DNA of 64,000 bases, from the NCBI GenBank assembly GCA_944391565.1, contig CALXUB010000028.1, forward strand, positions 30,738-94,737, written 5' to 3'. Source of the stretch: an uncultured Alphaproteobacteria bacterium. GTDB taxonomy: Bacteria > Pseudomonadota > Alphaproteobacteria > CAAHEQ01 > UBA3637. The position numbers were made by a program, and so were the translations under genes. Below the pieces are notes generated by a model. It searched no databases and was not told the DNA's origin. It was given only the letters and a program-made list of their open reading frames with translations. How positions within the stretch are numbered: the first letter of the stretch is position 1; each line of letters opens with the position of its first letter. Below, one piece after another: positions 1 to 63,020 of the stretch.

Positions 1-360
1 CATCATTGTGTGCATACATATCATCGGTACTCATAAAAGAAATATATTTCCCGTGTGCTTTTAGAATGCCTTTGTTATAGGGATCGAAAAAACCGATATC
101 CGGTTCGGAATAACATTTTACCCAGCCTTTATCAACGTATTCCTGAATAAGGTCTAACGTGCCGTCAGTCGAGGCACCGTCAATAATAATATGTTCGATA
201 TTTGTATATGTTTGAGCATGAATGGAATTCATGCTTTCTTTAAAAAGTTCTGCGCGTCCGGCTTTTATAATGTTCAGAGTCGCCGTAACGACGGTCACTA
301 GGGGGGGGGGGGGCAAAGTTTGCTGTTATTCAGTCCAGATGTCTCTTTGACCGTTTTCAT
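1..360 (-). CDS. GT2 glycosyltransferase, 5' part (continues beyond window start). ATG at 360-358 is followed by a 13-G (coding poly-C) tract; currently frame-shifted OFF, terminating after 20 codons.
   Basis: Minus-strand translation gives MKTVKETSGLNNSKLCPPPP* with 13 C; with 14 or 11 C it continues LVTVVTATLNIIKAGRAELFKESMNSIHAQTYTNIEHIIIDGASTDGT..., matching the N-termini of the paralogous GT2 genes at 684-1736 and 8886-9719. RBS AAGGAG lies 6 nt upstream of the ATG. Confidence 0.7.
301..313. repeat. Homopolymeric G13 tract (slipped-strand phase-variation switch) inside the 5' coding region of the GT2 gene
   Basis: 13 consecutive G read directly at 301-313, preceded by CACTA. Confidence 0.9.
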
Positions 361-9856: not shown

Positions 9857-12118
9857 ATGAAAGCGGAACTTTTGGCGCCGGCCGGAGATGTTGAGGCCGG
9901 TTATGCGGCTCTTTTTTATGGTGCTGATGCGGTTTATTTGGGGCTTCAGCAATTTTCGGCGCGGGCGACAGCCGTTAATTTTACACCGGAAACATTGGCT
10001 GATTTTACGGGCTATGCCCATTCATTAAAACGAAAACTTTATGTTGCCGTCAATACTTTGGTGCAGGAAACGGAATTATCCAGCTTGCTTCAAACATTGG
10101 AGGCTTGTCGAACAGCGCAAGCAGATGCGGTGATTTTACAAGATTTAGGGGTTGCTCGTGTCATTCGTGATTCTTTTCCGGAGCTTGAATTACATGCCAG
10201 CACGCAAATGGCCGTTCATAATAAAGAAGGAGCGCTGGCTTTACAGCGATTGGGCTTTACACGGGTTGTTTTGGCGCGTGAGTTGAGCTTGCCTGAAATA
10301 GAAGAAATCGCAGCTATTCCCGGTCTTGAAACCGAAGCCTTTATTCACGGCGCGTTGTGCTATTCTTACAGCGGATTATGTCTGTTTTCATCAATGGAAA
10401 CTGGGAAAAGCGCAAACCGTGGGAAATGTTCTTATCCGTGCCGGGCCTGTTTTCAGGGGCCGCTTGGAGCACGCCATTATTTTTCAATGAAAGATATGGC
10501 TTTATGCGAAGATGTTTTAAAAATGCCCGTCAGCAGCTTAAAAATAGAAGGACGTAAAAAAAGTGCTTTATATGTTGCGGCGGTGACGGATTTTTATCGA
10601 AGAATTTTGGATGGCAAGGGGGTCGATTCGAATCGTGCTGAGAATATTCGGCAGATTTTTTCAAGACCTTGGACAAAGTTTCATTTTTTGGGGAAAAATA
10701 AAGAAGTCGTTGATCCTGATTTTGTAGGGCATCGGGGCCTTGAAATCGGTCAGGTGGAGGTCGCTTTTCAAGGGAAACTTCTGTTTCGGACGAAACATGC
10801 ATTAGCTCGATATGACGGCTTGCAGATTGATGTCAAAGGGTTTGAAAAACCTTTTGGTTTCTCTTTGGAAAAAATGCGTGTTGCAGGTCAATCTGTTTTC
10901 GAGGCTAAGGCCGGTGATAAAGTAGAAGTGTCTTTACCGTCGAACGCGCCTTTTCTCCAAAAGGGTGAAAGAATTTACTTGGCTTCATCAACAGCCGTTA
11001 AAGGAGCTTATCCGTACCAAAAACCAAAAGCAGGAGCCTTTATGCCCAAAACGCCGTTATCTGTGCAACTGGAAATCAAGCCCGACTTATTAAAAGCGCA
11101 GGCAATGGGGCAAACATGTGAGATATTCGGTCAATTTGAAACGGCACAAAATCCGGGAAAAACAACAGCAGCTGCGCATCAAGCATTTGCTAAGACCGAT
11201 CGCGCTCCTTTTTATTTGTCTGATTTGAAGATAGAAAATCCGCAATCGCTGTTTGTTCCCGTTTCTGTATTAAACGATCTTCGTCGACGTTTGTATCAAG
11301 ACCTTGAACTCCCACCAAAAATAACTGCTTTGCCGCCGCTGCCGTCGGCTCTGAAAAACAGGAAAAAAGAGTTTGTTCTGAAAACGGATTCGGCAGCATT
11401 ATTGACCAAGTTGGATTTGACAAATATGACTGAAGTCATTTATTTGCTAAATCCGGAGACGGATGTGGGCTTGTTTAAGCTGCTTCCTAAAAATAAAGTG
11501 CGCTTGGCGCTGCCGACGGTTTGTCGTCGGCCAAAGTGCTTTGCACCGGTTGTTCAGAAGCTGTTGGAGCAAGGCTATCGAAAATGGGAAATCGGTCATG
11601 CGTGGGGATTAGCGCTTTTGCCGGAAAAAGGGATTGACCTGAGTTTTGATACACCGTTTTATATGATGAATACACAAGCTTTTGCCATGGCACAGGAAAT
11701 GGGAGCAACTCGTGCCTGTTTTGCAATTGAGGACACGTTGGAAAATATCCGACAACTAGCGTCAAAGCCGAGTATTGAGACGACATTTGTTATTTATCAG
11801 GATGTTCCTTTGTTTACAAGTGCTGTTTGTTTGCGCGCCAACAGCTGTCGAGAGTGTCCTAAAGATGAAAAATGGAGTCGTTTGCAAAAAGGTAAAGAAC
11901 AGTTTGATGTTCTATCCAAAAACTGTGGGACAACGGTATTTTCGGCTGAACCTTTGTGTTTGGCATCTGAAGCCGCTTCCGTTTCGGCTGATTACTATCG
12001 GATAGATTTCGTCGGAAAGGTGTATTCACCTGAAAAAGCGGCTTATTTGCTGGACCAGCTTTCCCATTTCAAAGACGTGCTCGGCAGCAGAAAAGGCAAT
12101 ATGCAACGGCGTCTTTAA
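9857..12118 (+). CDS. Peptidase U32 family protein (large form)
   Basis: N-terminal ELLAPAGD...ADAVY U32 signature; 753 aa. Confidence 0.65.
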   Translation: MKAELLAPAGDVEAGYAALFYGADAVYLGLQQFSARATAVNFTPETLADFTGYAHSLKRKLYVAVNTLVQETELSSLLQTLEACRTAQADAVILQDLGVARVIRDSFPELELHASTQMAVHNKEGALALQRLGFTRVVLARELSLPEIEEIAAIPGLETEAFIHGALCYSYSGLCLFSSMETGKSANRGKCSYPCRACFQGPLGARHYFSMKDMALCEDVLKMPVSSLKIEGRKKSALYVAAVTDFYRRILDGKGVDSNRAENIRQIFSRPWTKFHFLGKNKEVVDPDFVGHRGLEIGQVEVAFQGKLLFRTKHALARYDGLQIDVKGFEKPFGFSLEKMRVAGQSVFEAKAGDKVEVSLPSNAPFLQKGERIYLASSTAVKGAYPYQKPKAGAFMPKTPLSVQLEIKPDLLKAQAMGQTCEIFGQFETAQNPGKTTAAAHQAFAKTDRAPFYLSDLKIENPQSLFVPVSVLNDLRRRLYQDLELPPKITALPPLPSALKNRKKEFVLKTDSAALLTKLDLTNMTEVIYLLNPETDVGLFKLLPKNKVRLALPTVCRRPKCFAPVVQKLLEQGYRKWEIGHAWGLALLPEKGIDLSFDTPFYMMNTQAFAMAQEMGATRACFAIEDTLENIRQLASKPSIETTFVIYQDVPLFTSAVCLRANSCRECPKDEKWSRLQKGKEQFDVLSKNCGTTVFSAEPLCLASEAASVSADYYRIDFVGKVYSPEKAAYLLDQLSHFKDVLGSRKGNMQRRL

Positions 12119-36321: not shown

Positions 36322-36759
36322 ATGAACAAGGAAGTCAAAATCTATTCAGCAGAGCTTCATGCTTTTTGTGCTCTGCCTTTTGCGGATAAAGGAATTCGGG
36401 CCGGTTTTCCAAGCCCGGCGCAAGATTATATTGAAAAGAGTCTGGATTTAAATGAAGCTTTAATCAAACATCCGGCCAGTACTTTTTTCGGGCGTGTTGT
36501 CGGCGATAGTATGAAGGATTGCGGATTGGAGGAAGGAGACATTTTGGTTATTGATAAATCTTTGACGGTTTATGACGGGGCAATGGCTGTTTGTTTCATT
36601 GATGGAGAGTTTACGATTAAGTTTATTAAAAAGAAAGCGGGCGGTCTATGGCTAATGCCTGCTAATTCAGCTTATTTACCGATTCAGGTGACTTCTGAAA
36701 ATGATTTTATGGTTTGGGGTATTGTGACGTACTCTATCAAAAACAGGCATAAGAGGTAA
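36322..36759 (+). CDS. umuD: Error-prone repair protein UmuD (S24 LexA-like peptidase)
   Basis: GDSM Ser motif and downstream Lys; 145 aa; followed by umuC. Confidence 0.75.
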   Translation: MNKEVKIYSAELHAFCALPFADKGIRAGFPSPAQDYIEKSLDLNEALIKHPASTFFGRVVGDSMKDCGLEEGDILVIDKSLTVYDGAMAVCFIDGEFTIKFIKKKAGGLWLMPANSAYLPIQVTSENDFMVWGIVTYSIKNRHKR

Positions 36760-36761
36760 AG

Positions 36762-38018
36762 ATGTTCGGATTGCTGGATTGTAATAATTTTTATGTCAGT
36801 TGCGAGCGTGTTTTTAATCCTGCTTTATGTCAAAAGCCTGTTTTGGTGCTTAGTAATAATGACGGTTGTGTGATTGCCCGTTCGAATGAAGCAAAAGCGC
36901 TGGGTATTCAAATGGGAACCCCTGCTTATCAGTTGAAGAGGGTGATCGAAAGAGAAAAAATACATGTTTTTTCTTCTAATTATGCATTATACGCTGATAT
37001 GTCCGGTCGTGTGATGCAGCTTTTGGAAAGTTGTGTGCCGGCAATGGAAGTTTATTCAATAGACGAAGCTTTCTTGGATTTGACAGGCATAACACAACTT
37101 ACTTCCTTCGGTAGAAAAATAATTCAGATGGTGATGCGCGGAACAGGCATTCCTGTTTCGTTGGGGATAGCTTCTACGAAAACTTTGGCAAAAGTTGCCA
37201 ATAAATTTGCAAAGAAATATCAATCTTATCAGCATGTGTGTTTAATAGATACACAAGAAAAACGTGAAAAAGCTCTGCGATTAACGAATATCAGCGATGT
37301 GTGGGGAATTGGACATCGTCTGACGGAAAAACTGCATCAGGAAGGTGTGAAAACAGCCTATGATTTTACCTGTCTGCCGCGTGCGTGGGTCAGACAAAAT
37401 CTGCATCTGGGCGGATTATGTGTTTGGCAAGAGCTGCAAGGAGAAAAATGTCTTGACTTAGAACAAGAAGAAATGGAGAAAAAACAAATTTGCACTTCCC
37501 GTAGTTTTGGCGAAATGGTGACAGAATTGTCAGTGTTGAAAGAAGCCATTGCAACACATGCAGCCAGGTGTGCGGCTAAATTAAGAAAACAAAACGGCTG
37601 TGTTGTTTCGTTGGTCGTTTTTATCTCTACAAACGTTCATCGGACGGATTTACCTCAATACTGGAAAAGCCAACTTGTTTCCTTATTGGTTCCGTCAGAT
37701 GATACACGTGAAATTGTGACAGCGGCCTTGCATGGGTTGGAACAGATTTACAAACAAGGATATAATTATAAAAAAGCAGGTGTGATTTTGACGGAAATTG
37801 TCGCTAAGGTGCCTTTTCAGCAGGATTTATTTGATGAAAAGAATCATGAAAAGGCTTTTCGGTTAATGCAAGCCATAGATCAAATAAACGGTTTTTATCA
37901 TGAATGTAAAATTCGTTTGGCTGTCGAAGGAACCGGTCGTCGGTGGCGATTAAAACAGGAAAAACGTTCATTATGTTATACAACAAACTGGCGGGAGTTA
38001 ATTCGCATTCGAACATAA
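36762..38018 (+). CDS. umuC: DNA polymerase V subunit UmuC (Y-family)
   Basis: N-terminal LDCNNFYVSCE Y-family motif. Confidence 0.8.
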   Translation: MFGLLDCNNFYVSCERVFNPALCQKPVLVLSNNDGCVIARSNEAKALGIQMGTPAYQLKRVIEREKIHVFSSNYALYADMSGRVMQLLESCVPAMEVYSIDEAFLDLTGITQLTSFGRKIIQMVMRGTGIPVSLGIASTKTLAKVANKFAKKYQSYQHVCLIDTQEKREKALRLTNISDVWGIGHRLTEKLHQEGVKTAYDFTCLPRAWVRQNLHLGGLCVWQELQGEKCLDLEQEEMEKKQICTSRSFGEMVTELSVLKEAIATHAARCAAKLRKQNGCVVSLVVFISTNVHRTDLPQYWKSQLVSLLVPSDDTREIVTAALHGLEQIYKQGYNYKKAGVILTEIVAKVPFQQDLFDEKNHEKAFRLMQAIDQINGFYHECKIRLAVEGTGRRWRLKQEKRSLCYTTNWRELIRIRT

Positions 38019-48105: not shown

Positions 48106-48432
48106 TTAAAGAAAAGAACGAGGTGGTTTTTTTATTTTATAAATAAATGATAAAGAAAAAGATTTTACTTTCGGAGGCCGTTTAAAAATACTTACCGAAG
48201 CCTCAAAACGCTCTTGAATACTGGAAGTGGGCAAGAATGAAAAAGCATGGGTACAGAGGGAACAATCTTCGCAACAGCAAGTATGGTGTTGCTGATGCGG
48301 ACAGTCCGAAGGTGCAGTTATGGACAGAACAGTTGTCGGTTGAGTCGAATGAATATGTGTTAAGACGGACATTCCTAAAAAGGATGTCACAAAAGCCAAC
48401 AAAAACAAAAAAGATACAACAGCTTTTTTCAT
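48106..48432 (-). CDS. Small secreted Cys/His-rich protein (CzcI-like metal-binding/regulatory protein)
   Basis: CPHQQHHTCCCEDCSLCTH cluster; first gene of the efflux operon. Confidence 0.45.
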   Translation of the reverse strand: MKKAVVSFLFLLAFVTSFLGMSVLTHIHSTQPTTVLSITAPSDCPHQQHHTCCCEDCSLCTHAFSFLPTSSIQERFEASVSIFKRPPKVKSFSLSFIYKIKKPPRSFL

Positions 48433-48610
48433 AAAAGACATCTTAGCAATGATGGACTTCTTTTGTCAATATCAAAAAAGAGACTTTTAGATGATAATAA
48501 AAATGTTTTTATTGATTACTTGTAAACAGGTAAAAAATGTAAAAAAATAATATTTTTATTGCAATTTTTTATGAAATGTTTTAGGAAGAAGAAAAAGAGG
48601 AGATACGATC

Positions 48611-48927
48611 ATGCACGTCAGAAAGAAACAAGCTTGTATAAGTGCTTTCATCCCACTAGGGGGGAGGGGGGTCAATTTGGTCGCACATTATTAGAGACAT
48701 TGTCAGTTTTAGCCTTGTCAGGAATGCTGACATCGTTAGCATTAGCCGGGTTTGTTTACGCGCGAGCTAAGGTTGCGGCCAATCATATTTTAACGGATGT
48801 TTCATTAGCGTATGCCGAAGCGTTGCCCGAGACGCGGGAGAGCAATCGGTTTTATGAAATTTCTTTTACGACAGATTCACATTTAACGATACACACGGTC
48901 CGGACGGAAAGTTTTCTGACGGAATGA
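48611..48927 (+). pseudogene. Type IV pilin-like gene with interrupted G-tract (G6-A-G6). The ATG+RBS at 48611 is out of frame with the pilin-like body (ON with one fewer G).
   Basis: RBS GAGGAG 8 nt before the ATG at 48611; with the current tract the reading stops after 28 codons, while the next frame encodes ...GGQFGRTLLETLSVLALSGMLTSLALAGFVYARAKVAAN (pilin-like N-helix). Confidence 0.5.
48659..48671. repeat. G6-A-G6 tract preceded by CACTA (same flank as the G13 tract at 301-313)
   Basis: Read directly. Confidence 0.9.
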
Positions 48928-48933
48928 GCGGAT

Positions 48934-49776
48934 TTGGTTATTGTTGAGGATGTTCCCGAGCGTATTTGCCGGATATTGTTTGGGATGAACGGCGTGAACG
49001 GTCTGAGTCTTTTGTCAGAATCAGACGAGACATATGTTCCGTTTCCCGGGTGTGAGACTGGTTTGAACCGGATGATATTTTCTTTGAACGGAGAGGGGTC
49101 ATGTGATTGTCCTGCGCATGCGTCTTGTGAGCTGGACACGGGGTGTCATTGTGATTTCGGGTATGAAATATCTTCTGACGGGAGTTGTCAGGAGAAGAAC
49201 TGTCCTTCTGTTAAAGAGATTACGGAGATCACGGAAGAATATTGTTGTGAGAAGGCGAAAGGTGTTTGGGACGGTATAGTAGGTTGTGTTTGTCCCGAGG
49301 AAAGTTATTTTAATGGAACGTCCTGTGTTGCGTCGCAGGGTTTTTGTGTTTACAGTTATGAAGGACCGAGCGGCGGCGGATATTATTCAAATTGTTCATA
49401 TACCTTCAGTGAAACGGATGGCACGGCTTCGGTCGTTTCACGGGAAAGCTGTCCGTCTGGACAATATTGTATTTTAAAGTGGACGGACACGGATTGCGGC
49501 AGTGAGATCGAAGCCTCCGGCGCTTCGGTGATTTACGGTCGTTGTGCAACGCTGTCGACACATTACAGCCAATGTCGTCAATATGATGAAAATCTTGTTC
49601 CGACGGTTTCGGCCCTTCAAGGCTGCGGTTCAGACGAATATTGCCGATTAACTTGGTCGAGCGATACCTGCGACACGTTATCGGCCGAAGGAGCAGCTTT
49701 TATTTACGGAGTCTGCTTGGAACTCGCCAAGTCTTCTCCTATAACATGCCCGGTGGAAAAAGAAGAAGGAGTTTAA
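48934..49776 (+). CDS. Cys-rich EGF-like repeat protein, in frame with the upstream pilin-like ORF and separated from it by a single TGA
   Basis: 32 Cys in recurring CxC/CxxC spacing; no signal peptide of its own. Confidence 0.45.
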   Translation: MVIVEDVPERICRILFGMNGVNGLSLLSESDETYVPFPGCETGLNRMIFSLNGEGSCDCPAHASCELDTGCHCDFGYEISSDGSCQEKNCPSVKEITEITEEYCCEKAKGVWDGIVGCVCPEESYFNGTSCVASQGFCVYSYEGPSGGGYYSNCSYTFSETDGTASVVSRESCPSGQYCILKWTDTDCGSEIEASGASVIYGRCATLSTHYSQCRQYDENLVPTVSALQGCGSDEYCRLTWSSDTCDTLSAEGAAFIYGVCLELAKSSPITCPVEKEEGV

Positions 49777-49777
49777 G

Positions 49778-50164
49778 ATGAAAAAAATTTTTTTAATATT
49801 GTTTTTATTATTTTCGCTGAATGCCTATGGAGTTTGTAAAGAAGGGACAGAAATCACGGGTAAGAACGGTCATGTTTATTGTATGAGCAATGTCATTATG
49901 AACTGGTATACGGCATTTGCATGGTGTGATACGCAGGGGCGGACATTGGCGACGATGGAACAGATATGCGACATTGATGAAACGGAACGTTGGGATGGGA
50001 ATACTGGAGAAGGGAAGTGCTTGAACATGGTTGGAGCAGGTCTAAGTCGATGGGCTTGGTCGTCCATTCCCTCCGGCTCCACTTCCGCATTCCTCGTCAC
50101 TCTATCAACTGGAAATGTGACCAGCAGCATTCGTTCAAATACGTACAACGCCATCTGTTGGTAG
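49778..50164 (+). CDS. Secreted C-type-lectin-like small protein
   Basis: Signal peptide; WCDTQGRTLATMEQ and terminal CW resemble the CTLD fold; strong RBS. Confidence 0.4.
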   Translation: MKKIFLILFLLFSLNAYGVCKEGTEITGKNGHVYCMSNVIMNWYTAFAWCDTQGRTLATMEQICDIDETERWDGNTGEGKCLNMVGAGLSRWAWSSIPSGSTSAFLVTLSTGNVTSSIRSNTYNAICW

Positions 50165-50356
50165 GTTGTTTCCCAGCTTTTATTTTGACTCCAATCCGTC
50201 CTTAAATGGACGGATTGGGACTTGACGGACTGCATTTAAAGCAGTCCGTCCCGGGGTGCCGGGCTGCAACAGGGGCTTTATCGGAGCAGATACCGCTGTT
50301 TTTTTTTGATTATTTCGGTTTAAAGCCGGAAGAAAAAGAAAACCGTATTTTTTTAT

Positions 50357-50395: not shown

Positions 50396-50472
50396 GGGCG
50401 GTTAGCTCAGCTGGCTAGAGCATCTCGTTTACACCGAGAGGGTCAGGAGTTCGAATCTCTTACCGCCTACCA
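50396..50472 (+). tRNA. tRNA-Val (anticodon TAC)
   Basis: GGGCGGTTAGCTCAGCTGGCTAGAGCATCTCGTTTACACCGAGAGGGTCAGGAGTTCGAATCTCTTACCGCCTACCA. Confidence 0.8.
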
Positions 50473-51812: not shown

Positions 51813-54236
51813 TTAATTAACGGCAACCGTTGTTTGTGGACCGGGTGCCTCACAAGGCGGTAAGTCGTTTGGCAAAGGGGTCAAAGGTTGGATTAAGGCC
51901 TTTTCCAAAACTTCGCGCACATAAGTGACAGGAATAATTTGAAGACCTTCTTTAACGTTGGCCGGTATTTCCTCCAAATCTTTGACATTTTCCGAGGGAA
52001 TCAGAACGGTTTTTAAACCGGCTCGCAGAGCTGCCAACAATTTTTCCTTTAACCCACCGATCGGCAGAACACGACCACGCAACGTAATTTCTCCCGTCAT
52101 GGCAATGTCTTTCCGAACCGGAATACCGGTCAGAGCGGAAACCAAAGACGTACACATGGTAATACCGGCTGACGGTCCGTCTTTCGGTGTGGCTCCTTCG
52201 GGAACATGAACATGAAGATCATTCTTTTCAAATAAAGAGGAGGGAATACCAAAAGCAACATGGTGCGAACGAATGTAAGAACGAGCTGCTTCCACAGATT
52301 CTTTCATTACATCTCCCAGCGATCCCGTTAAGATGATATTGCCTTTTCCGGGCATCGTGACTGCTTCGATGGATAGAATTTCCCCCCCCACTTCTGTCCA
52401 AGCTAAACCGGTTGTCACACCGACTTGGTCTTCCTGTTCCGCAACCCCGAAACTATAACGTGGCACACCGGCATATTTTGACAAGTTTTCTTTTGTCACT
52501 TCCACCGTTTTTTGTTCACCCATCATGATTTCTTTGACGGCTTTTCGCGTCAGATTGGCAATTTCACGCTCTAAGTTGCGCACACCTGCCTCACGCGTAT
52601 ATAAACGGATTAAATCGCGGATAGCATCTTCCGTCACTTTAAATTCTTTTTCGGTCAATCCGGCGGCTTTCATTTGTTTGGCAATCAAATGACGCTTTGC
52701 TATTTCGACTTTTTCGTCTTCTGTATAGCCGGATAATTGAATAATTTCCATTCGATCTAACAAAGGACGCGGCATTTTCAGCGTGTTAGCCGTTGTGACA
52801 AACATCACGTCGGATAAGTTATAATCAATCTCCAAATAATGGTCGTTGAAGGTTGCATTTTGTTCAGGATCCAGCACTTCCAGCAAAGCAGAAGAAGGAT
52901 CTCCGCGCCAGTCAGCTCCTAATTTATCAATTTCATCCAACAGGAACAATGTGTTTAGCGTTTTGGCTTTTTTCATGCCCTGAATAATTTTGCCGGGCAT
53001 GGAACCGATATAGGTACGTCTGTGTCCGCGGATTTCTGCTTCATCCCGCATGCCGCCTAATGAGGCGCGGACGAAATGTCGTCCTGTTGCTTTGGCAATA
53101 GACTGTCCCAAAGATGTCTTGCCGACACCCGGCGGACCGACCAAACATAGAATCGGACCCTTAATTCCGTTCGACTTCTTTTGAACAGCTAAATATTCAA
53201 TGATGCGTTCTTTGACTTTTTCCAAACCGTAATGATCTTTATCCAGGATTTCCTGAGCTTTTTTTAAATCAATTTGGTTTCGTCCCGGATGCTTCCACGG
53301 CAAAGATAAAATCCAATCTAAATAATTGCGAATGACACCGGCTTCGGCCGACATAGGACCCATCATGCGCAGTTTCCTGAGCTCTCCAAGGGCTTTTTCT
53401 TTTGCTTCTTTGGGCAAATGTGCTTTTTCAATTCTTTTTTGAAACTCAAGCAATTCACTGCCTTCTTCTTCATCTCCCAGCTCTTTTTGAATGGCTTTCA
53501 TCTGCTCATTCAGATAGTATTCTTTTTGACTTTTTTCCATTTGATGTTTCACGCGCTTGCGGATTTTCTTTTCAACTTGCAAGACGCTGATTTCCTTTTC
53601 CATGAAAGTAAACAATTCTTCCATGCGTTTCAAAAGGGATTTTGTTTCCAAAAGCTTTTGTTTGTCAGCAATTTTAAGCGTTAAATGAGATGAAACGGCA
53701 TCTGCCAACTTGGCCGGATCTTGTATTTGAGAAACGGCGACCCATGCTTCCGGCGGAATGCGTTTATTCAGGCTGACATATCGTTCAAATTGTCCCATAA
53801 TGGAACGGGTGAGGGCATCCAATTCTTCGGATGGTTCATCTTCATCTTTAACTTGTTCGGCACGAACTTCCATAAAAGGATCTTCTTGAATGAAGGCTTT
53901 AATTTCAGCTCGTTGTGTTCCTTCCACCAAGACTTTGACGGTTCCGTCCGGCAGACGAAGCAGCTGCAAAACGGTTGCCAGTGTTCCCAGTGTATTCATA
54001 TCTTCGGCTTTGGGATCATCCACGGTCGGATCTTTTTGCGTGACAAGCAAAATTTGCTTATTTTCGGACATAATGCTATCCAAAGCACGGACTGACTTTT
54101 CGCGGCCGACAAACAAAGGCACAACCATGTGCGGAAAGACAACAATATCTCGTAACGGCAACAGCGGATAAACATCCTTCGGTCCGTTGTCGGCAGGAAT
54201 AATATTTTCAAAGTTTTTTAAATCTTCTGACGGCAT
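51813..54236 (-). CDS. lon: ATP-dependent Lon protease
   Basis: 807 aa; Walker [10 protein letters not shown]; catalytic Ser context DGPSAG. Confidence 0.95.
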
Positions 54237-58066: not shown

Positions 58067-58137
58067 ACAATTATATTGCAATATTATCTAAACTCTGTCA
58101 ATATATTTTTTATTCTAATATGAAAAAAGAGGTCACT

Positions 58138-61100
58138 ATGAGCTATACGTTAGGATTGGACTTAGGAAATACATCTATCGGATGGGTACTTTTAAAAACA
58201 AACGATGCGGAAATAACGGGAATTGAAGCCATGGGCGTCCGTATTTTCCCGGATGGTCGTGAAGCTCAGTCTAAAGAGCCTTTAGCTGTCGCACGCAGGA
58301 TGGCCCGTTCGATGCGCCGTTCTTTGGACAGACGTCTGCTGCGTCAGGAAAAACTGATGCGCTTTTTGATTGAGAACGGCCTTTACCCTGCAAATGAAGC
58401 AGATAGTAAGAAATTGGTTCAATTAAATCCCTATGCCTGTCGTGATAAAGCTTCCCGTGAAGAAGTTAATCCTTTTGAAGTGGGGCGAGCATTATACCAT
58501 ATTTGTCTTCGTCGCGGTTTTCTCAGCAACAGAAAAACAGACAAAAAAGACAAAGAAAGCGGCAGCATGAAAACAGCCATTCATGTATTGGAAGAAAAAA
58601 TAGCTCAATCAGGAGCGCAAACGCTGGGGCAATATCTGTATTTGCTTCAGCTTCAGGATGATCATGCGCAGCTGCGTGTCAGTGCGCAGACGGCGGGAAC
58701 AAAAAACGTATACAATTTCTATCCCTCTCGAGCCATGTATGAGCGGGAGGTTGATCAAATTTTAATGCATCAATCATATTTGTCGGCGGCCCAGAAAAAT
58801 GAAATAAAAGAAATTATTTTCTATCAACGGCCCTTGAAAAAGCCTCAAGTTGGCTTTTGCACTTTAGAAGAAAAAGAACGTCGGGCGCCCAAATCCAGTA
58901 TTTTGTTTCAATATTTCAGGTTGTTGCAAAAACTGAATGATTTAGAATATGTTTTCTTGGATACAGGGGAATGTTTAACAGATGAAAACCGTCAAGTTAT
59001 TAAAGAAATGCTGTTGAAATCAAAAGAAGTTTCTTTTGAAACGATTCGTAAAAAATTAGGCGTTTCGTATCGTTTTTCGCATGAAGACGAAAAAACATCC
59101 AAACTGACGGGACATGAAATCAATGCGAAAATGAGTTCTAAAAAGGCTTTCGGATCTGCTTGGTTTGAACTGTCCGGACGGGAACAAGAACACCTTGTCA
59201 TGCTTTTGTCCAATCTGGAGAAAGAAGATGTTCTTGAAAAATATTTAAAACAGACTTATCCGGATTTAAGCGATGAGCAAGTCGAATATCTGCTAGGACT
59301 TTCTTTTCCAGAAGGATATGGCCATTTAAGTCGACGAGCAATGTTAAAAATAATTCCGTTTATGGAAAAAGGCTTATCTTATTATGATGCTTGTGAAGCG
59401 GCCGGTTATCACGAAACGGAACAGCCGCACGGAGAGCTGTTGCCTTATTATGGGGAGATTTTGTATAAAAAATTATTGGGCGGAAGTTTTAATCCATCCG
59501 ATCAAAATACACCGGAGCTTTATTATGGAAAAATTAATAATCCGACAGTTCATATCGGTCTGAACCAACTTCGTTTGCTTGTCAATGAACTAATAGCCCA
59601 ATATGGGAAGCCGACACAAATTGTGGTAGAACTGGCGCGTGAATTAAAGATGTCTCAAAAAGACTTGAATGAACTGAATCGAAGACAAACGGCCGATAGA
59701 AAGGAAAACGAGAAAATCAATCTTTTTCTGAAAGAACAAGGATTGCCTGAAAGCTATGAAAATCGAATGCGGTATAAATTGTGGACGGATTTGGCTGAAA
59801 ATCCCTTGGAGCGCTGTTGTCCTTTCTGCGGTCGCACAATCGGTGAAGGGGATATTTTCTCGCCGGCTTTTGAAACAGAACATTTACTGCCATTTTCTCG
59901 TTCATTTAATGACGGACGGAATAATAAGGTTTTAGCTTGTAAGGAATGCAATAACTTTAAGAAAAACCAAACACCTTGGGAGGCATTTCATACTCATGTG
60001 GGAGATAAATATGATTGGGAAAATATCTTGGCCCGCGTTTCAAAAATGAATAACAGAAAAGCATGGCATTTTACGAAAGAAGCTGCCGAAAGTTTGGATG
60101 AAAACACGGTCTTAAATCGTTTTTTGAATGATACAAAGTATTTGTCCAAAATGGCAAAAGCTTATTTGGAATATATTTGTCCGGTTCGAACAATTCCGGG
60201 ACAATTAACCTCTAAAATGCGCAAGATTTGGCAATTTAATGACTTGATCGGCGAAACGGATGAAAAAGATCGCACGGAGCATCGACATCATGCGATTGAT
60301 GCCTTAACGGTGGCATGCACGACACGCAGTACACTACAGGCTTTTTCAACACATTCAAAAGAAAGCTATGAACGACAGCATAAAATTTTGGCCGGCAGTT
60401 TAGTTCCTTTTAAGGCTTTTAATCGGGCAGAAATGAAACAACTTTTGGAAAATATGGTGATTTCCTATAAACCTAATCATAAAGATGCTCAAAAAGCTGT
60501 TTCCCAAGGCAAAACGGCAGGGGCTTTGCATGATGAAACAAACTACGGAAAAGTGATGCATTTAAACGATGACGGTTCTGTTGAAAGCCGCTATGTGGTT
60601 CGAAAGCCGCTAATCAGTTTAATTGAAGATAAAAATATTGAAGAAATCGGTGATCGAAAAATCCGTCATGAACTGCAGACATTGCTTGCCGGCAAAAGTA
60701 AAGAGGAACGTAAAAAATTATTGGAGGCCTACAGCGAGGAAAAGAATATCAGAACGGTTCGCGTCCATATCATTAAAAAAGATGATGCTATGATCGGCAT
60801 TTGTCGGAAGGGACAGGAAAAACCCTATCGTTATGTCGCCAGCGGTAATAATTATTGTATGGATATTTATTGTCCGAATCGAGGGAAAAATAAAGGGGTT
60901 TGGTGTGGAGAAGTCATCTCTAATTATGAGGCTCATCAAAAAGGTTTCCAGCCTCAGTGGCGGCAAAAAGAGCCGGAGGCAAAACTGATTATGCGTCTGT
61001 TTATCGACGATATGGTCGCATATGAGGAAAACGGACAAACGGAAATCCGACGCGTGAAAAAAATGGATAAAAGTGTTAAAGTTTATCTGCGTTCTCATTT

Positions 61101-61227
61101 GATAGCAGCAGAAGAAGCAGATAAATTATCTTGGGCAGCTTCTCCGCGACAGCTTCAGTTAAAAAATGCCCGGAAAATAAAAGTTGATGTTTTGGGACGG
61201 GTTTTTGACCCGAAAAGTTCCAAATGA
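58138..61227 (+). CDS. cas9: Cas9, type II-C, about 1029 aa (ORF track begins at 58120; the ATG at 58138 has an AAGAGG RBS)
   Basis: RuvC-I LGLDLGNTSIGW; Arg-rich bridge helix RRMARSMRRSLDRRLLRQ; HNH ETEHLLPFSRSFNDGRNNKVLACKECNNFKKNQTP; RuvC-III HHAIDAL. Confidence 0.92.
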   Translation: MSYTLGLDLGNTSIGWVLLKTNDAEITGIEAMGVRIFPDGREAQSKEPLAVARRMARSMRRSLDRRLLRQEKLMRFLIENGLYPANEADSKKLVQLNPYACRDKASREEVNPFEVGRALYHICLRRGFLSNRKTDKKDKESGSMKTAIHVLEEKIAQSGAQTLGQYLYLLQLQDDHAQLRVSAQTAGTKNVYNFYPSRAMYEREVDQILMHQSYLSAAQKNEIKEIIFYQRPLKKPQVGFCTLEEKERRAPKSSILFQYFRLLQKLNDLEYVFLDTGECLTDENRQVIKEMLLKSKEVSFETIRKKLGVSYRFSHEDEKTSKLTGHEINAKMSSKKAFGSAWFELSGREQEHLVMLLSNLEKEDVLEKYLKQTYPDLSDEQVEYLLGLSFPEGYGHLSRRAMLKIIPFMEKGLSYYDACEAAGYHETEQPHGELLPYYGEILYKKLLGGSFNPSDQNTPELYYGKINNPTVHIGLNQLRLLVNELIAQYGKPTQIVVELARELKMSQKDLNELNRRQTADRKENEKINLFLKEQGLPESYENRMRYKLWTDLAENPLERCCPFCGRTIGEGDIFSPAFETEHLLPFSRSFNDGRNNKVLACKECNNFKKNQTPWEAFHTHVGDKYDWENILARVSKMNNRKAWHFTKEAAESLDENTVLNRFLNDTKYLSKMAKAYLEYICPVRTIPGQLTSKMRKIWQFNDLIGETDEKDRTEHRHHAIDALTVACTTRSTLQAFSTHSKESYERQHKILAGSLVPFKAFNRAEMKQLLENMVISYKPNHKDAQKAVSQGKTAGALHDETNYGKVMHLNDDGSVESRYVVRKPLISLIEDKNIEEIGDRKIRHELQTLLAGKSKEERKKLLEAYSEEKNIRTVRVHIIKKDDAMIGICRKGQEKPYRYVASGNNYCMDIYCPNRGKNKGVWCGEVISNYEAHQKGFQPQWRQKEPEAKLIMRLFIDDMVAYEENGQTEIRRVKKMDKSVKVYLRSHLIAAEEADKLSWAASPRQLQLKNARKIKVDVLGRVFDPKSSK

Positions 61228-62150
61228 CCGGACAGATTTTGGAAATAGCAACAGATAATAAGCATTTGTCCGCCAAAGACGGATTTATCGTCATTTCGGA
61301 AGGACAGGTCGAGTTGGGCCGTATTCCGATTGACGCCGTTGAAGCCGTAGTTGTTTCTGCGCATGGCATCACTTACAGTCATTCTTTTTTGGTGCGCTTG
61401 TCAGAGAATAACATTCCGTTTGTGGCTTGCAATCAAAAGCACTTTCCCGTTTCTTATCTGCTTCCTTTAGAGGGACATTATAAGCAAGGCTCTGTGATGG
61501 ATGCTCAGCTTCAAGCAAATCTACCGCTTAATAAAAGGTTGTGGCGAGACTTAGTGAAAGCAAAAATTGCTATGCAAATCAGCGTTTTAACACATTATCA
61601 GAAGCCTGTGCAACGTTTAGAGTATTTATTGAAATCCGTCAAATCGGATGATAGTGAAAATGCAGAAGGTCAGGCAGCCCGTTTTTACTTTCAAGCATTG
61701 TTCGGAGACAATTTTATACGCGATCGTGAGGCGGATGGTATCAATGCCATGCTCAATTACGGATATACGGTTCTGAGGGCCTTTATCGCGCGTTATTCGA
61801 CGGCTGCCGGTTTGCATCCGACAATGGGGATTCATCATCGGAACGCTTTGAACGGATTTCGCTTAGCCGACGATTTGATGGAACCTTTTCGGCCGATTGT
61901 TGACTTTGCTGTTTATGAGATGATAACAAAGGGAGAAACGGCACTGACTTCAACCGTGAAGCAAAGCTTGGTTAATGTATTTTCAGGAAATATACCCGCT
62001 TTTTTGGGACAAACTCAAATAACAATCTGTATGCAGAATCTGTGTATTTCTTTGGCTAAAGTATATTTAAAAGAACGGGAGGAACTTGATTTGCCATATT
62101 CACCGCAACCATGGGATTGGGAGGCTTTAAATGCCTTCATCGCCGTATAA
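61224..62150 (+). CDS. cas1: Cas1
   Basis: 308 aa; overlaps the cas9 stop (ATGA); position. Confidence 0.85.
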   Translation: MTGQILEIATDNKHLSAKDGFIVISEGQVELGRIPIDAVEAVVVSAHGITYSHSFLVRLSENNIPFVACNQKHFPVSYLLPLEGHYKQGSVMDAQLQANLPLNKRLWRDLVKAKIAMQISVLTHYQKPVQRLEYLLKSVKSDDSENAEGQAARFYFQALFGDNFIRDREADGINAMLNYGYTVLRAFIARYSTAAGLHPTMGIHHRNALNGFRLADDLMEPFRPIVDFAVYEMITKGETALTSTVKQSLVNVFSGNIPAFLGQTQITICMQNLCISLAKVYLKEREELDLPYSPQPWDWEALNAFIAV

Positions 62151-62460
62151 TCAAATGTGGATGATGGTTATGTTTGATTTGCCGGTCGGAACGGCAAAAG
62201 AGCGTAAAAAAGCCACGGCTTTTCGAAAGGGACTCTTGGATCTTGGCTTCGAAATGTCACAATTTTCAGTTTATGTACGTTTTTGCGGCGACAGGCAGAA
62301 AACAGAACCTTATGTTCGAAAAATTAAGACGTTAATTCCGGAAAATGGGAGCGTCACGTTATTATTTTTTACGGATCGACAATTCTCCGATATTATTAAC
62401 TTTTCGAATCGAAAACGTAAAAAATTAAAGGAAAATCCGGCTCAGTTATCTCTGTTCTAG
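62131..62460 (+). CDS. cas2: Cas2
   Basis: 109 aa; overlaps cas1; MWMMVMFDLP start typical of Cas2. Confidence 0.85.
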   Translation: MPSSPYNQMWMMVMFDLPVGTAKERKKATAFRKGLLDLGFEMSQFSVYVRFCGDRQKTEPYVRKIKTLIPENGSVTLLFFTDRQFSDIINFSNRKRKKLKENPAQLSLF

Positions 62461-62468
62461 AGAGCTTT

Positions 62469-62497
62469 TGGGAGGATATTTTCTTATATCCTCCTTT
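62469..62497 (+). terminator. Rho-independent terminator after cas2 (GGGAGGATAT-TTTCTT-ATATCCTCC-TTTT)
   Basis: Read directly. Confidence 0.65.
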
Positions 62498-62521
62498 TAA
62501 AACAACGACTTAACTCAGTGA

Positions 62522-63020
62522 GATTATAGCAGATTAAAGAGTATGGTCAAGCCGTAACAATTCGTTGTCTACATAATTTTTTACTTCTATTATAGCAGAT
62601 TAAAGAGTATGGTCAAGCCGTAACACTATAATTTCAAAGTATTGGGATTTTGCTATTATAGCAGATTAAAGAGTATGGTCAAGCCGTAACTTATCAATGT
62701 GTTTATTTACATCAACATTAATTATAGCAGATTAAAGAGTATGGTCAAGCCGTAACTTGTTTATCCCTGTTGTTATATAGCTTTTTATTATAGCAGATTA
62801 AAGAGTATGGTCAAGCCGTAACATCACCTAAAATAATATTGAAAGCTTTTTTATTATAGCAGATTAAAGAGTATGGTCAAGCCGTAACTTTTCAAAACCG
62901 TCAAATTCAAGCCGAGAAATTATAGCAGATTAAAGAGTATGGTCAAGCCGCAACGCAACACGCGAGATCATTGACATCGTACAGATTATAGCAGATGAAG
63001 GAATATCTTGTTGACGAAAG
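62522..63020 (-). CRISPR. CRISPR array: 36-bp repeat (+ strand ATTATAGCAGATTAAAGAGTATGGTCAAGCCGTAAC), 7 spacers of 30-31 bp, repeat 7 variant (GCCGCAAC), degenerate 8th repeat at 62985. The crRNA-sense repeat is the reverse complement and ends in an extended -10 TGCTATAAT.
   Basis: Repeat starts 62522, 62589, 62655, 62721, 62787, 62853, 62919, 62985 counted directly. Confidence 0.95.

Follow-up and report, generated by a model that had tools for sequence, protein, structure and literature searches.

A stretch of 64,000 nt from an uncultured Alphaproteobacteria bacterium (contig CALXUB010000028.1 of assembly GCA_944391565.1; the whole stretch is referred to here as the window) carries an interrupted homopolymer of the form G6-A-G6 (positions 48659–48671, plus strand) in the 5′ region of a pilin-like gene. 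On balance, this element, tract 2, is best explained as a former contingency G repeat in the leader region of the gene that has become stabilised, most likely frozen “on” in the phase of an ATG at 48571. As its run is interrupted, the window allele departs from the uninterrupted repeat that characterises a contingency locus. The tract is a derivative of such a locus and not an active one. There are two tracts in this one 64-kb stretch: the first, in a glycosyltransferase gene, toggles among strains, and the second appears to have been frozen by a point mutation.

The proposed course of events starts from an ancestral gene that would have been a single open reading frame (ORF) of ~400 aa, encoding a short basic leader, the motif G|RTLLE, a hydrophobic alpha-1 helix, a pilin-type sheet and a Cys-rich repeat domain. 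Uninterrupted tracts would vary in length by slipped-strand mispairing, shifting the leader and body frames relative to each other, as is suggested by the G16 at this locus, the G15 of a paralogue and the C13–C15 of the glycosyltransferase gene. In the window, a G-to-A substitution would have split the run into two G6 halves, strongly lowering slippage and freezing the frame, and the switching rate of the interrupted allele would be expected to be low. The frozen phase, 13 (the same as 16), would join the body to the ATG at 48571 and not to a second ATG at 48611. In the window strain, the protein would also be truncated by a TGA at 48925. We infer from sequence that slippage is the cause of the length differences, that the interruption stabilises the tract and which start codon is in use.

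Exact look-ups of the neighbouring proteins led to contigs from about ten independent metagenomes and to an NCBI metagenome-assembled genome (MAG), GCA_964311715.1. All homopolymer lengths given here are assembly-derived, and 11 assemblies span tract 2. The preliminary description of this DNA had proposed aligning related loci for length alleles, and such alleles exist: G6AG6 in nine assemblies (the window and eight further ones), an uninterrupted G16 in one (L019) and G5AG6 in one (L020), with an uninterrupted G15 in the paralogue (L160). Ten of the 11 assemblies are in phase 13 or 16, which are equivalent and join ATG 48571 to the body. None, the uninterrupted G16 included, is at 11 or 14, the phase that ATG 48611 needs. 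A control run of C8 (G8 on the coding strand) inside lon (52382–52389) is invariant in 12 assemblies, which indicates that the assemblies do not simply scramble homopolymers. A sequencing or assembly artefact was ruled out, since the tracts and their flanks lie inside contigs from about ten independent studies. Judged from these assemblies, the organism has genuine length-variable homopolymers in genes for surface structures.

Tract 1 consists of the pentamer CACTA (296–300) followed by G13 (301–313; together 296–313, plus strand). On the minus strand this reads as C13 followed by TAGTG, at the 5′ end of a family-2 glycosyltransferase gene that sits in a polysaccharide cluster. The C13 state creates a short ORF, MKTVKETSGLNNSKLCPPPP followed by a stop (298–360, minus strand), whose TAG (300–298) overlaps the GTG (298–296) that opens the glycosyltransferase body. 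C13 was found in three assemblies, C14 in four and C15 in one, and runs of at least 16 and at least 19 stand at contig ends. C14 alone fuses the short upstream ORF with the body to give a 351-aa glycosyltransferase, and the C15 state was seen to end in a 40-aa dead end. As read from these assemblies, tract length demonstrably toggles the predicted glycosyltransferase ORF between a fused and a split form among strains. The C13 “off” state may be leaky, through termination-reinitiation at the TAG/GTG overlap.

Tract 2 has the same left flank as tract 1, CACTA (48654–48658, plus strand; 5 nt), and its surroundings in the window read ...CATCCCACTA GGGGGGAGGGGGG TCAATTTGGTCGCACATTATTAGAG... It had been described at the outset that CACTA with a 13-nt tract, found at 301–313, recurs at 48654–48671 with the middle G replaced by A, and both the coordinates and the letters agree. 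The sequences GGGGGGNGGGGGG and CACTAGGGGGG occur exactly twice each in the window and in none of 100 dinucleotide-preserving shuffles. The pattern G6NG6 likewise has two matches in the window versus none in 100 shuffles, so that the homopolymer is far beyond chance length. The two CACTA-plus-G tracts are not expected by chance.

It is very unlikely that the tract was never a switch here, and was instead a Gly-coding stretch and a recombination patch between paralogous cassettes, with lengths that are neutral or assembly noise. Such a history would suit the observation that the similarity between the window and the paralogue starts exactly at the tract, that another 5′ variant (L002 and L161, described below) begins with a G run at a contig end, and that contigs often break at these tracts. 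Against it, chance would not be expected to produce any G run of 13–16, a glycosyltransferase ORF is toggled by the other such tract in this genome and the G8 control never varies. The location, at the 5′ end of a gene for a surface protein and within its leader region, is also the classical one for a contingency repeat.

As it stands in the window, the pilin-like gene (gene A) is an ORF that opens at ATG 48571, crosses the tract to enter the pilin-like body and is closed by a TGA (48571–48927, plus strand; 118 aa). Its frame is open back to a TTG at 48559 (122 aa from there), and the tract encodes R-G-E-G-G within it. At 13 bases, this unbroken ORF already joins ATG 48571 to the body. Gene callers pick the equivalent ATG in three other contigs (L018, L023 and L024), where the product is 164 aa. 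Approximately half of the long genes in the window have no obvious Shine–Dalgarno sequence, so that its absence at 48571 is not disqualifying. Upstream lies a candidate promoter (48523–48551, plus strand), a weak sigma-70-like match composed of TAAACA, a 17-nt spacer and AATAAT. It agrees at 9 of 12 positions, and such sites are no commoner in the region than in shuffles.

A Shine–Dalgarno-like hexamer, GAGGAG (48597–48602, plus strand), precedes ATG 48611 by 8 nt. In the 48571 frame, the same letters belong to the Lys/Arg-rich codons AAG AGG AGA. From ATG 48611, a short ORF (48611–48694, plus strand; 27 codons and a TAG at 48692–48694) reads MHVRKKQACISAFIPLGGRGVNLVAHY and then stops, and the next frame encodes ...GQFGRTLLETLSVLALSG... 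The preliminary description had correctly identified this strong ribosome binding site and the peptide that ends in a stop. Its statement that site and start are out of frame with the body holds for ATG 48611 and missed ATG 48571, which is in frame at 13. It also placed the junction of the two frames at 12 G. Translation of the tract at 11, 12, 13 and 14 bases has revealed that the relation of leader and body shifts with every base, and that ATG 48611 meets the body at 11 or 14 and is out of frame at 12 and 13.

Measured from the frame of ATG 48611, that of the body lies at −1. This leaves room for an improbable route whereby translation initiated at ATG 48611 would enter the body frame after a −1 shift on the G run, giving constitutive low expression at 13 or 16. 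The shift could arise either from slippage of tRNA-Gly in the P site, on GGG GGG ahead of the rare AGG codon, or from slippage of the polymerase. Re-pairing on GGG would be perfect and would bring GAG GGG GGT CAA into frame, and the strong Shine–Dalgarno sequence would be reconciled with both the 13/16 phase and purifying selection on the body. However, the 48611 frame contains no canonical X XXY YYZ heptamer, a stimulatory structure downstream was neither sought nor seen, and for transcriptional slippage G6 is a short run. The route has no precedent in this organism and is purely inferential.

The body itself bears traces of both constraint and damage. The TGA at 48925–48927 is private to the window allele and aligns with a Trp in some relatives. 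The codon is TGG in all six other assemblies that cover the site (L002, L018, L021, L023, L024 and L025), so that the TGA is a nonsense mutation that splits an ancestral single gene. Recoding of TGA was ruled out, as the standard code yields long ORFs for the other genes of the window. A G at 49014 (plus strand) is kept in the window and in L004. It is deleted in L002, L018, L021, L023, L024, L160 and L161, and the resulting frameshift leaves a 131- or 164-aa product with a restart where ATG 49072 would lie. In L021 there is an extra T in addition. The MAG GCA_964311715.1 (L025 and L004) carries G6AG6, TGG and the G at 49014, as would be expected if it kept an unbroken 13-phase ORF of ~400 codons, although its two contigs are separated by 30 nt that were not seen.

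Among the alleles, gene A has 8–9 synonymous versus 3 non-synonymous segregating sites (Fisher p about 3e-4 to 9e-4). In gene B, the ORF that follows in the same frame, dN/dS is 0.04–0.18 against the other alleles and the paralogue. Between the window and L018, which are both G6AG6, gene B differs by 16.5 synonymous and 3.5 non-synonymous changes (dN/dS 0.055, p about 3e-8). The substitution pattern indicates that the body is under purifying selection among these alleles. The suggestion that the G-to-A change had locked the switch is borne out in that G6AG6 is found in nine of the 11 assemblies and is apparently stable. As to the state that was locked, the synonymous excess in the body makes “locked on from 48571” at least as likely as “locked off”. 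The idea had been said to fail if every related genome had this interrupted tract and another annotated start. To a large extent this is what was found, with ATG 48571 called in the three contigs named above, though not fully, as uninterrupted and shifted alleles exist.

Several points weigh against a frame frozen “on” from ATG 48571. No Shine–Dalgarno sequence precedes this ATG and the textbook GAGGAG lies at 8 nt from the other. The leader from ATG 48571 would be 37 aa versus 6–20 aa in relatives, and codon usage 5′ of the tract looks non-coding in both candidate leader frames. Short-read assembly lengths of 13–16 may err by one. The nine G6AG6 alleles are identical by descent and represent one lineage, and are not independent evidence for the phase. 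The length differences are between assemblies and not between reads of one population. The copies have polymorphisms in common, so that gene conversion from other, expressed copies could account for the low dN/dS. Finally, three independent disruptions (the TGA of the window, the 1-nt deletion in most alleles and the extra T of L021) suggest relaxed constraint.

Much of this would be accommodated if the true start were ATG 48611, with phases 11 and 14 as the “on” states. The interrupted 13-nt tract would then have locked the gene off, and the locus would be decaying or would serve as a silent recombination donor. This is a possible explanation, though a less likely one. The strong GAGGAG would be a genuine ribosome binding site and the leader, MHVRKKQ..., is in the style of the basic leaders MKHYQKHQSG and MRKEQIG of relatives. 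The three disruptive body mutations in different strains would be those of a silent gene, the lack of codon-usage support for the 48571 frame 5′ of the tract would follow, and other copies could keep the sequence up by conversion. It is opposed by the lack of any assembly at 11 or 14 among the 11, the freely slippery G16 among them, and by the strong purifying selection between two G6AG6 alleles in gene B. One MAG also appears to hold the whole 400-codon frame in the 13 phase, and the purine run resembling a Shine–Dalgarno sequence can be accounted for by the Lys/Arg codons of a basic leader. A frame frozen in the 48571 phase is accordingly preferred here to one that is locked off.

The gene appears to be truly pilin-like. 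Following the tract is TCAATTTGGT (48672–48681, plus strand). Together with the final two G of the run it encodes G-Q-F-G, where the leader closes on a glycine of the cleavage-site type. It is also the left edge of the segment common to the window and the paralogous copy. The Q-F-G matches the Q-[ST]-G of relatives, which places the tract inside the leader-coding region, 3 codons before the cleavage-type glycine. The body (48682–48924, plus strand) opens with RTLLETLSVLALSGMLTSLALAGFVYA, has a hydrophobic helix of the alpha-1 type with Glu at +5, and the globular part begins thereafter. Homologues of the ORF at 48934–49776 have 46–56% identity and are single proteins of 365–442 aa that span both window ORFs. 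Their N-termini (MKHYQKHQSG|RTLLEQLAVLAI..., MRKEQIG|RSMIEMLAVLAL..., MQNQKG|RSMIE...) share a pattern of a short basic leader, an invariant Gly, R-[ST]-[LM]-[LI]-E and a hydrophobic helix. In the window protein, G-R-T-L-L-E is followed by 14 allowed residues and the motif is conserved in 10 homologues; the residue at +1 is Arg, where the motif wants a hydrophobic one. An Asp replaces the leader Gly in allele P0005. Two homologues, P0007 and P0009, are truncated at the N-terminus, which could conceal tracts that are out of phase.

Profile searches point the same way. P0018 passes the cut-off of NCBIfam TIGR02532, the prepilin-type N-terminal domain (18.8 versus 16.3), and P0013 scores 16.1, 0.2 bits short of it. 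The gene A protein of the window has weak GspH/ComGE matches (E about 0.04), and Pfam N_methyl stays under its cut-off. A model of the relatives’ protein best matches type IV pilins, and predicts the pilin fold of a long N-terminal alpha-1 helix on an antiparallel sheet. The type-IV-pilin-like N-terminal helix that was first noticed in the body frame is supported by the motif of relatives, by TIGR02532 in P0018 and by the model. A Pfam search gave no match for genes A, B and C of the window. A protein search with gene A, both as it is and in a hypothetical G14 “on” form, returned one cluster of 5 members, in a database that also does not contain the 164-aa products of the contigs, so that no weight attaches to its having no MHVRKKQ... 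protein. No prepilin peptidase or pilus assembly machinery was seen among the ORFs scanned in the 64-kb window and short flanks.

Gene A heads a 1.5-kb cassette of three genes, A, B and C. Gene B (48934–49776, plus strand) is in the same frame as gene A, encodes a Cys-rich repeat domain and is homologous to the C-terminal two thirds of the 365–442-aa proteins. It has a possible restart of its own at ATG 49072. Gene C (49778–50164, plus strand) encodes a secreted protein of 128 aa, whose C-terminus corresponds to the variable region of a retroelement in sibling strains. This variable region (50066–50181, plus strand) comprises the last ~100 nt of gene C and ~17 nt past its stop codon, and matches the template repeat of siblings L003, L004, L005 and L007 at 88–91%.

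In these four siblings, genes B and C are separated by a bAvd gene (PF22296), the template repeat and a reverse transcriptase (RVT_1; 11431–13732 in L003, 11171–13489 in L004, for the whole element). In L004, the differences between template and variable repeat are concentrated at template adenines. By its components, the element of the sibling strains is recognised as a diversity-generating retroelement. In the window, tblastn gave no match to the reverse transcriptase or bAvd, and only the target bearing the variable region (49778–50164) is present. The B–C junction there (49762–49810) is a clean junction of Shine–Dalgarno sequence and ATG, with no simple deletion scar. The reverse transcriptase is split into ORFs of 139 and 290 aa (L004 11586–12908) in all four assemblies that carry the retroelement, and may be inactivated or dependent on a frameshift. 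A third structural form occurs in L008, L009, L010 and L013 (e.g., L008 12368–12493), where the template repeat is joined directly to the sequence 3′ of the variable repeat, and both the reverse transcriptase and the bulk of gene C are gone, apparently by recombination between the template and variable repeats. Tract 2 was also considered as the IMH-type GC stretch of the retroelement; this was ruled out, as the tract lies 1.4 kb from the variable repeat, at the opposite end of the cassette.

The cassette is present in at least two copies per genome. Contig L160, from the same sample and at the same coverage as a copy-1 contig, holds a second A-B-C cassette (9919–11439) at another genomic site, flanked by genes for an HD-domain protein and a tRNA synthetase. 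This copy resembles the window from the tract up to 3 nt beyond the gene C stop codon, with a similarity of 86% overall and 97–99% in gene A. Genes B and C are far more diverged (dS 0.43 and about 0.8). The 5′ end of this copy reads ...GTTCTTGACA-G15-TCAATTTGGCCGC..., with TTGACA abutting the G15 and no ATG or Shine–Dalgarno sequence upstream. With G14 or G17 the TTG of TTGACA would be in frame, but with the G15 that is present it is not.

A third 5′ variant (L002 1–117, L161 1–118 and L162) starts at a contig end with G7–G9, followed by TATGTTAAAAAG, 108 nt in all. It then has a Shine–Dalgarno sequence and ATG GAA CGG GGC | CGC, encoding MERG|RTLLE, a short leader typical of the family. The TATGTT after the G run is a possible −10 hexamer, with a leader of ~95 nt after it. 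The last bases of L161 match the context of L160 and not that of the window. The third variant may be another allele of copy 2, giving TTGACA-Gn-TATGTT, a promoter with a G run as its spacer. A scan of metagenome contigs with the left end of this variant, G7TATGTTAAAAAG, returned 11 chance matches with unrelated downstream sequence.

These arrangements allow a bolder proposal, which is rather doubtful. It holds that the poly-G run is the portable left joint of a 1.5-kb adhesin cassette, within a three-layer variation system for one pilus-tip complex in a probably gut-dwelling bacterium. Three 5′ modules would be joined to a common body at the run or immediately after it: a promoter and long leader ending in CACTA; TTGACA-G15; and a G run, TATGTT and a 108-nt leader with its own Shine–Dalgarno ATG. 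Homopolymer-anchored recombination would swap expression modules between copies. Slippage would set “on” or “off”, by frame in one module and by promoter spacing (TTGACA-Gn-TATGTT) in another, and the retroelement would diversify the ligand-binding end of the last gene. The CACTA-Gn flank that the cassette has in common with the glycosyltransferase tract would reflect sequence-directed seeding or copying of tracts.

The shared flank itself, which the preliminary description found odd in genes of opposite orientation, recurs in 0 of 100 shuffles. CACTA is rare, being found 22 times in the window when both strands are counted, and CACTAG does not occur there beyond the two tracts. A one-sided flank match of 5 bases between the tracts has a chance of about 0.001–0.002 per side. 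The right flanks are loosely alike (CAAAGTTTG and TCAATTTGG). In the glycosyltransferase gene, the flank provides the TAG that overlaps the GTG start; it has no such role in the pilin-like gene, and the left flank of the paralogue is a different one, TTGACA. As the two genes lie on opposite strands, constraint at the protein level does not explain the common flank. The flank is considered real but unexplained, and is possibly a coincidence spotted after the fact. A G-quadruplex, as at Neisseria pilE, was ruled out on inspection, there being just two G runs.

A scan of genome contigs listed at least 120 CACTAG9 matches, and those listed all belong to unrelated phyla. Among them, unrelated low-GC MAGs (L082, L098, L132 and L142, the first two titled uncultured Bacilli) have TTGACA-N4-CACTA-G10-TATAAT. 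At several of their loci, the G runs occupy the spacer of perfect sigma-70 promoters, and these loci look like candidates for promoter-spacer phase variation. The same matches include two loci of a Candidatus Gastranaerophilaceae MAG (L104 and L115) with CACTA-G11/G13-CAATTG, a flank that recalls that of the window.

The cassette is wedged between an RND efflux operon and a tRNA gene (50396–50469), the latter lying between the cassette and hupB. The gene order tig-clpP-clpX-lon-hupB is the basis for regarding the organism as an alphaproteobacterium, and sample names suggest the human gut as its source. Just upstream of the efflux operon is a 111-aa ORF (48106–48441, minus strand) with a signal-like N-terminus, a Cys/His-rich stretch (HQQHHTCCCEDCSLC) and a weak DUF6769 match, which may encode a metal-binding accessory protein. 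Further along the window, next to tig at 58120–63020, there is a type II clustered regularly interspaced short palindromic repeats (CRISPR) system with Cas9 (1035 aa), Cas1 and Cas2, whose array has at least 7 repeats at a spacing of 66 nt. The whole CRISPR-Cas system is absent at that position in L003, L004, L005 and L007, which have prfC-side genes instead. A gene for a UmuC-type Y-family polymerase with IMS domains follows a 145-aa ORF at 36322–38018. It forms an error-prone polymerase pair, for which no link to the hypervariable loci was established.

Homopolymeric on/off repeats are textbook features of Neisseria, Haemophilus, Campylobacter and Helicobacter. To our knowledge, they are essentially undescribed in the uncultured bacteria of gut metagenomes. 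By analogy, the mechanism itself would be the classical contingency repeat, which is already known. What is new is the organism, which is uncultured and known from metagenomes only, and the protein family, in which a pilin-like N-terminus is combined with a Cys-rich domain and which has no Pfam family. The apparent stabilisation by a G-to-A change, caught in the act, and the co-location with the target of a retroelement are also new. Tract 2 would thereby be a natural example of a contingency locus losing its switching. With a slippage repeat at the head of the cassette and, in siblings, a tail diversified by a retroelement, two unrelated mechanisms of hypervariation may act on one surface structure. 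There is a practical side as well: such tracts break assemblies and mislead gene callers, and starts, split genes and “pseudogenes” differ between assemblies here.

Among known systems, poly-G/C tracts are found in lgtA, lgtC and lgtD of Neisseria, in wlaN/cgtA and capsule genes of Campylobacter jejuni and in the fucosyltransferase genes of Helicobacter pylori. Reviews and examples of such tracts in the glycosyltransferase genes of surface-glycan loci are available (PMC3417653, PMC2823697, PMC5084427). Tract 1 resembles them in its C13–C15 near the 5′ end of a family-2 glycosyltransferase gene and in its on/off alleles across strains. It differs in belonging to a different phylum-level lineage, a bacterium known from metagenomes only, and in the TAG/GTG overlap of C13, whereby its “off” state is maybe leaky.

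The retroelement of the siblings, with bAvd, template repeat, reverse transcriptase and a variable region at the 3′ end of gene C, is like those with targets of the C-type-lectin fold, such as Mtd of Bordetella phage BPP-1. It is also like that of the Bacteroides type V pilus adhesins (doi 10.1101/2024.11.15.621889) in that a retroelement is tied to adhesin genes of pilus type. In the main paper of that work on gut retroelements and pili (doi 10.1101/2024.11.15.621889), “phase variation” has no occurrence and a homopolymeric repeat at the cassette head goes unmentioned. Unlike the Bacteroides and BPP-1 systems, the window strain is without the retroelement core, whether through loss or because it was never there, and in contrast to the Bacteroides adhesins, the pilin-like partner here is type IV-like.

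The type IVb minor pilins with a large C-terminal domain, CofB and TcpB, and the pseudopilins of type II secretion differ from the window protein in that sequence similarity ends at the N-terminal motif. The window protein has Arg and not a hydrophobic residue at +1, and its C-terminal domain is a Cys-rich repeat without a Pfam match. In Neisseria, pilE is subject to gene conversion from pilS copies that do not have the conserved N-terminal helix. The present system is similar in its several near-identical pilin-like copies with different 5′ ends, of which the L160 copy has no obvious start signal, and in the polymorphisms common among copies. It differs in that the copies include the conserved N-terminal helix, that there is no G4-type element and that directed high-frequency conversion is not evidenced.

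The closest analogue of tract 2 would appear to be the G run of Neisseria pilC. As Jonsson and colleagues are said to have described in 1991, pilC1 and pilC2, genes for a pilus-associated adhesin, undergo frameshifts in a G run of the region coding for the signal peptide. The window differs in that the protein is itself pilin-like, with a signal of the class III type, and in that its allele is interrupted, apparently fixed, with an ambiguous start codon, and is known from sequence alone. The two systems are alike in having a G run in the part of a gene for a pilus-associated surface protein that codes for the leader or signal peptide, with the length of the run shifting the frame of the start relative to that of the mature protein.

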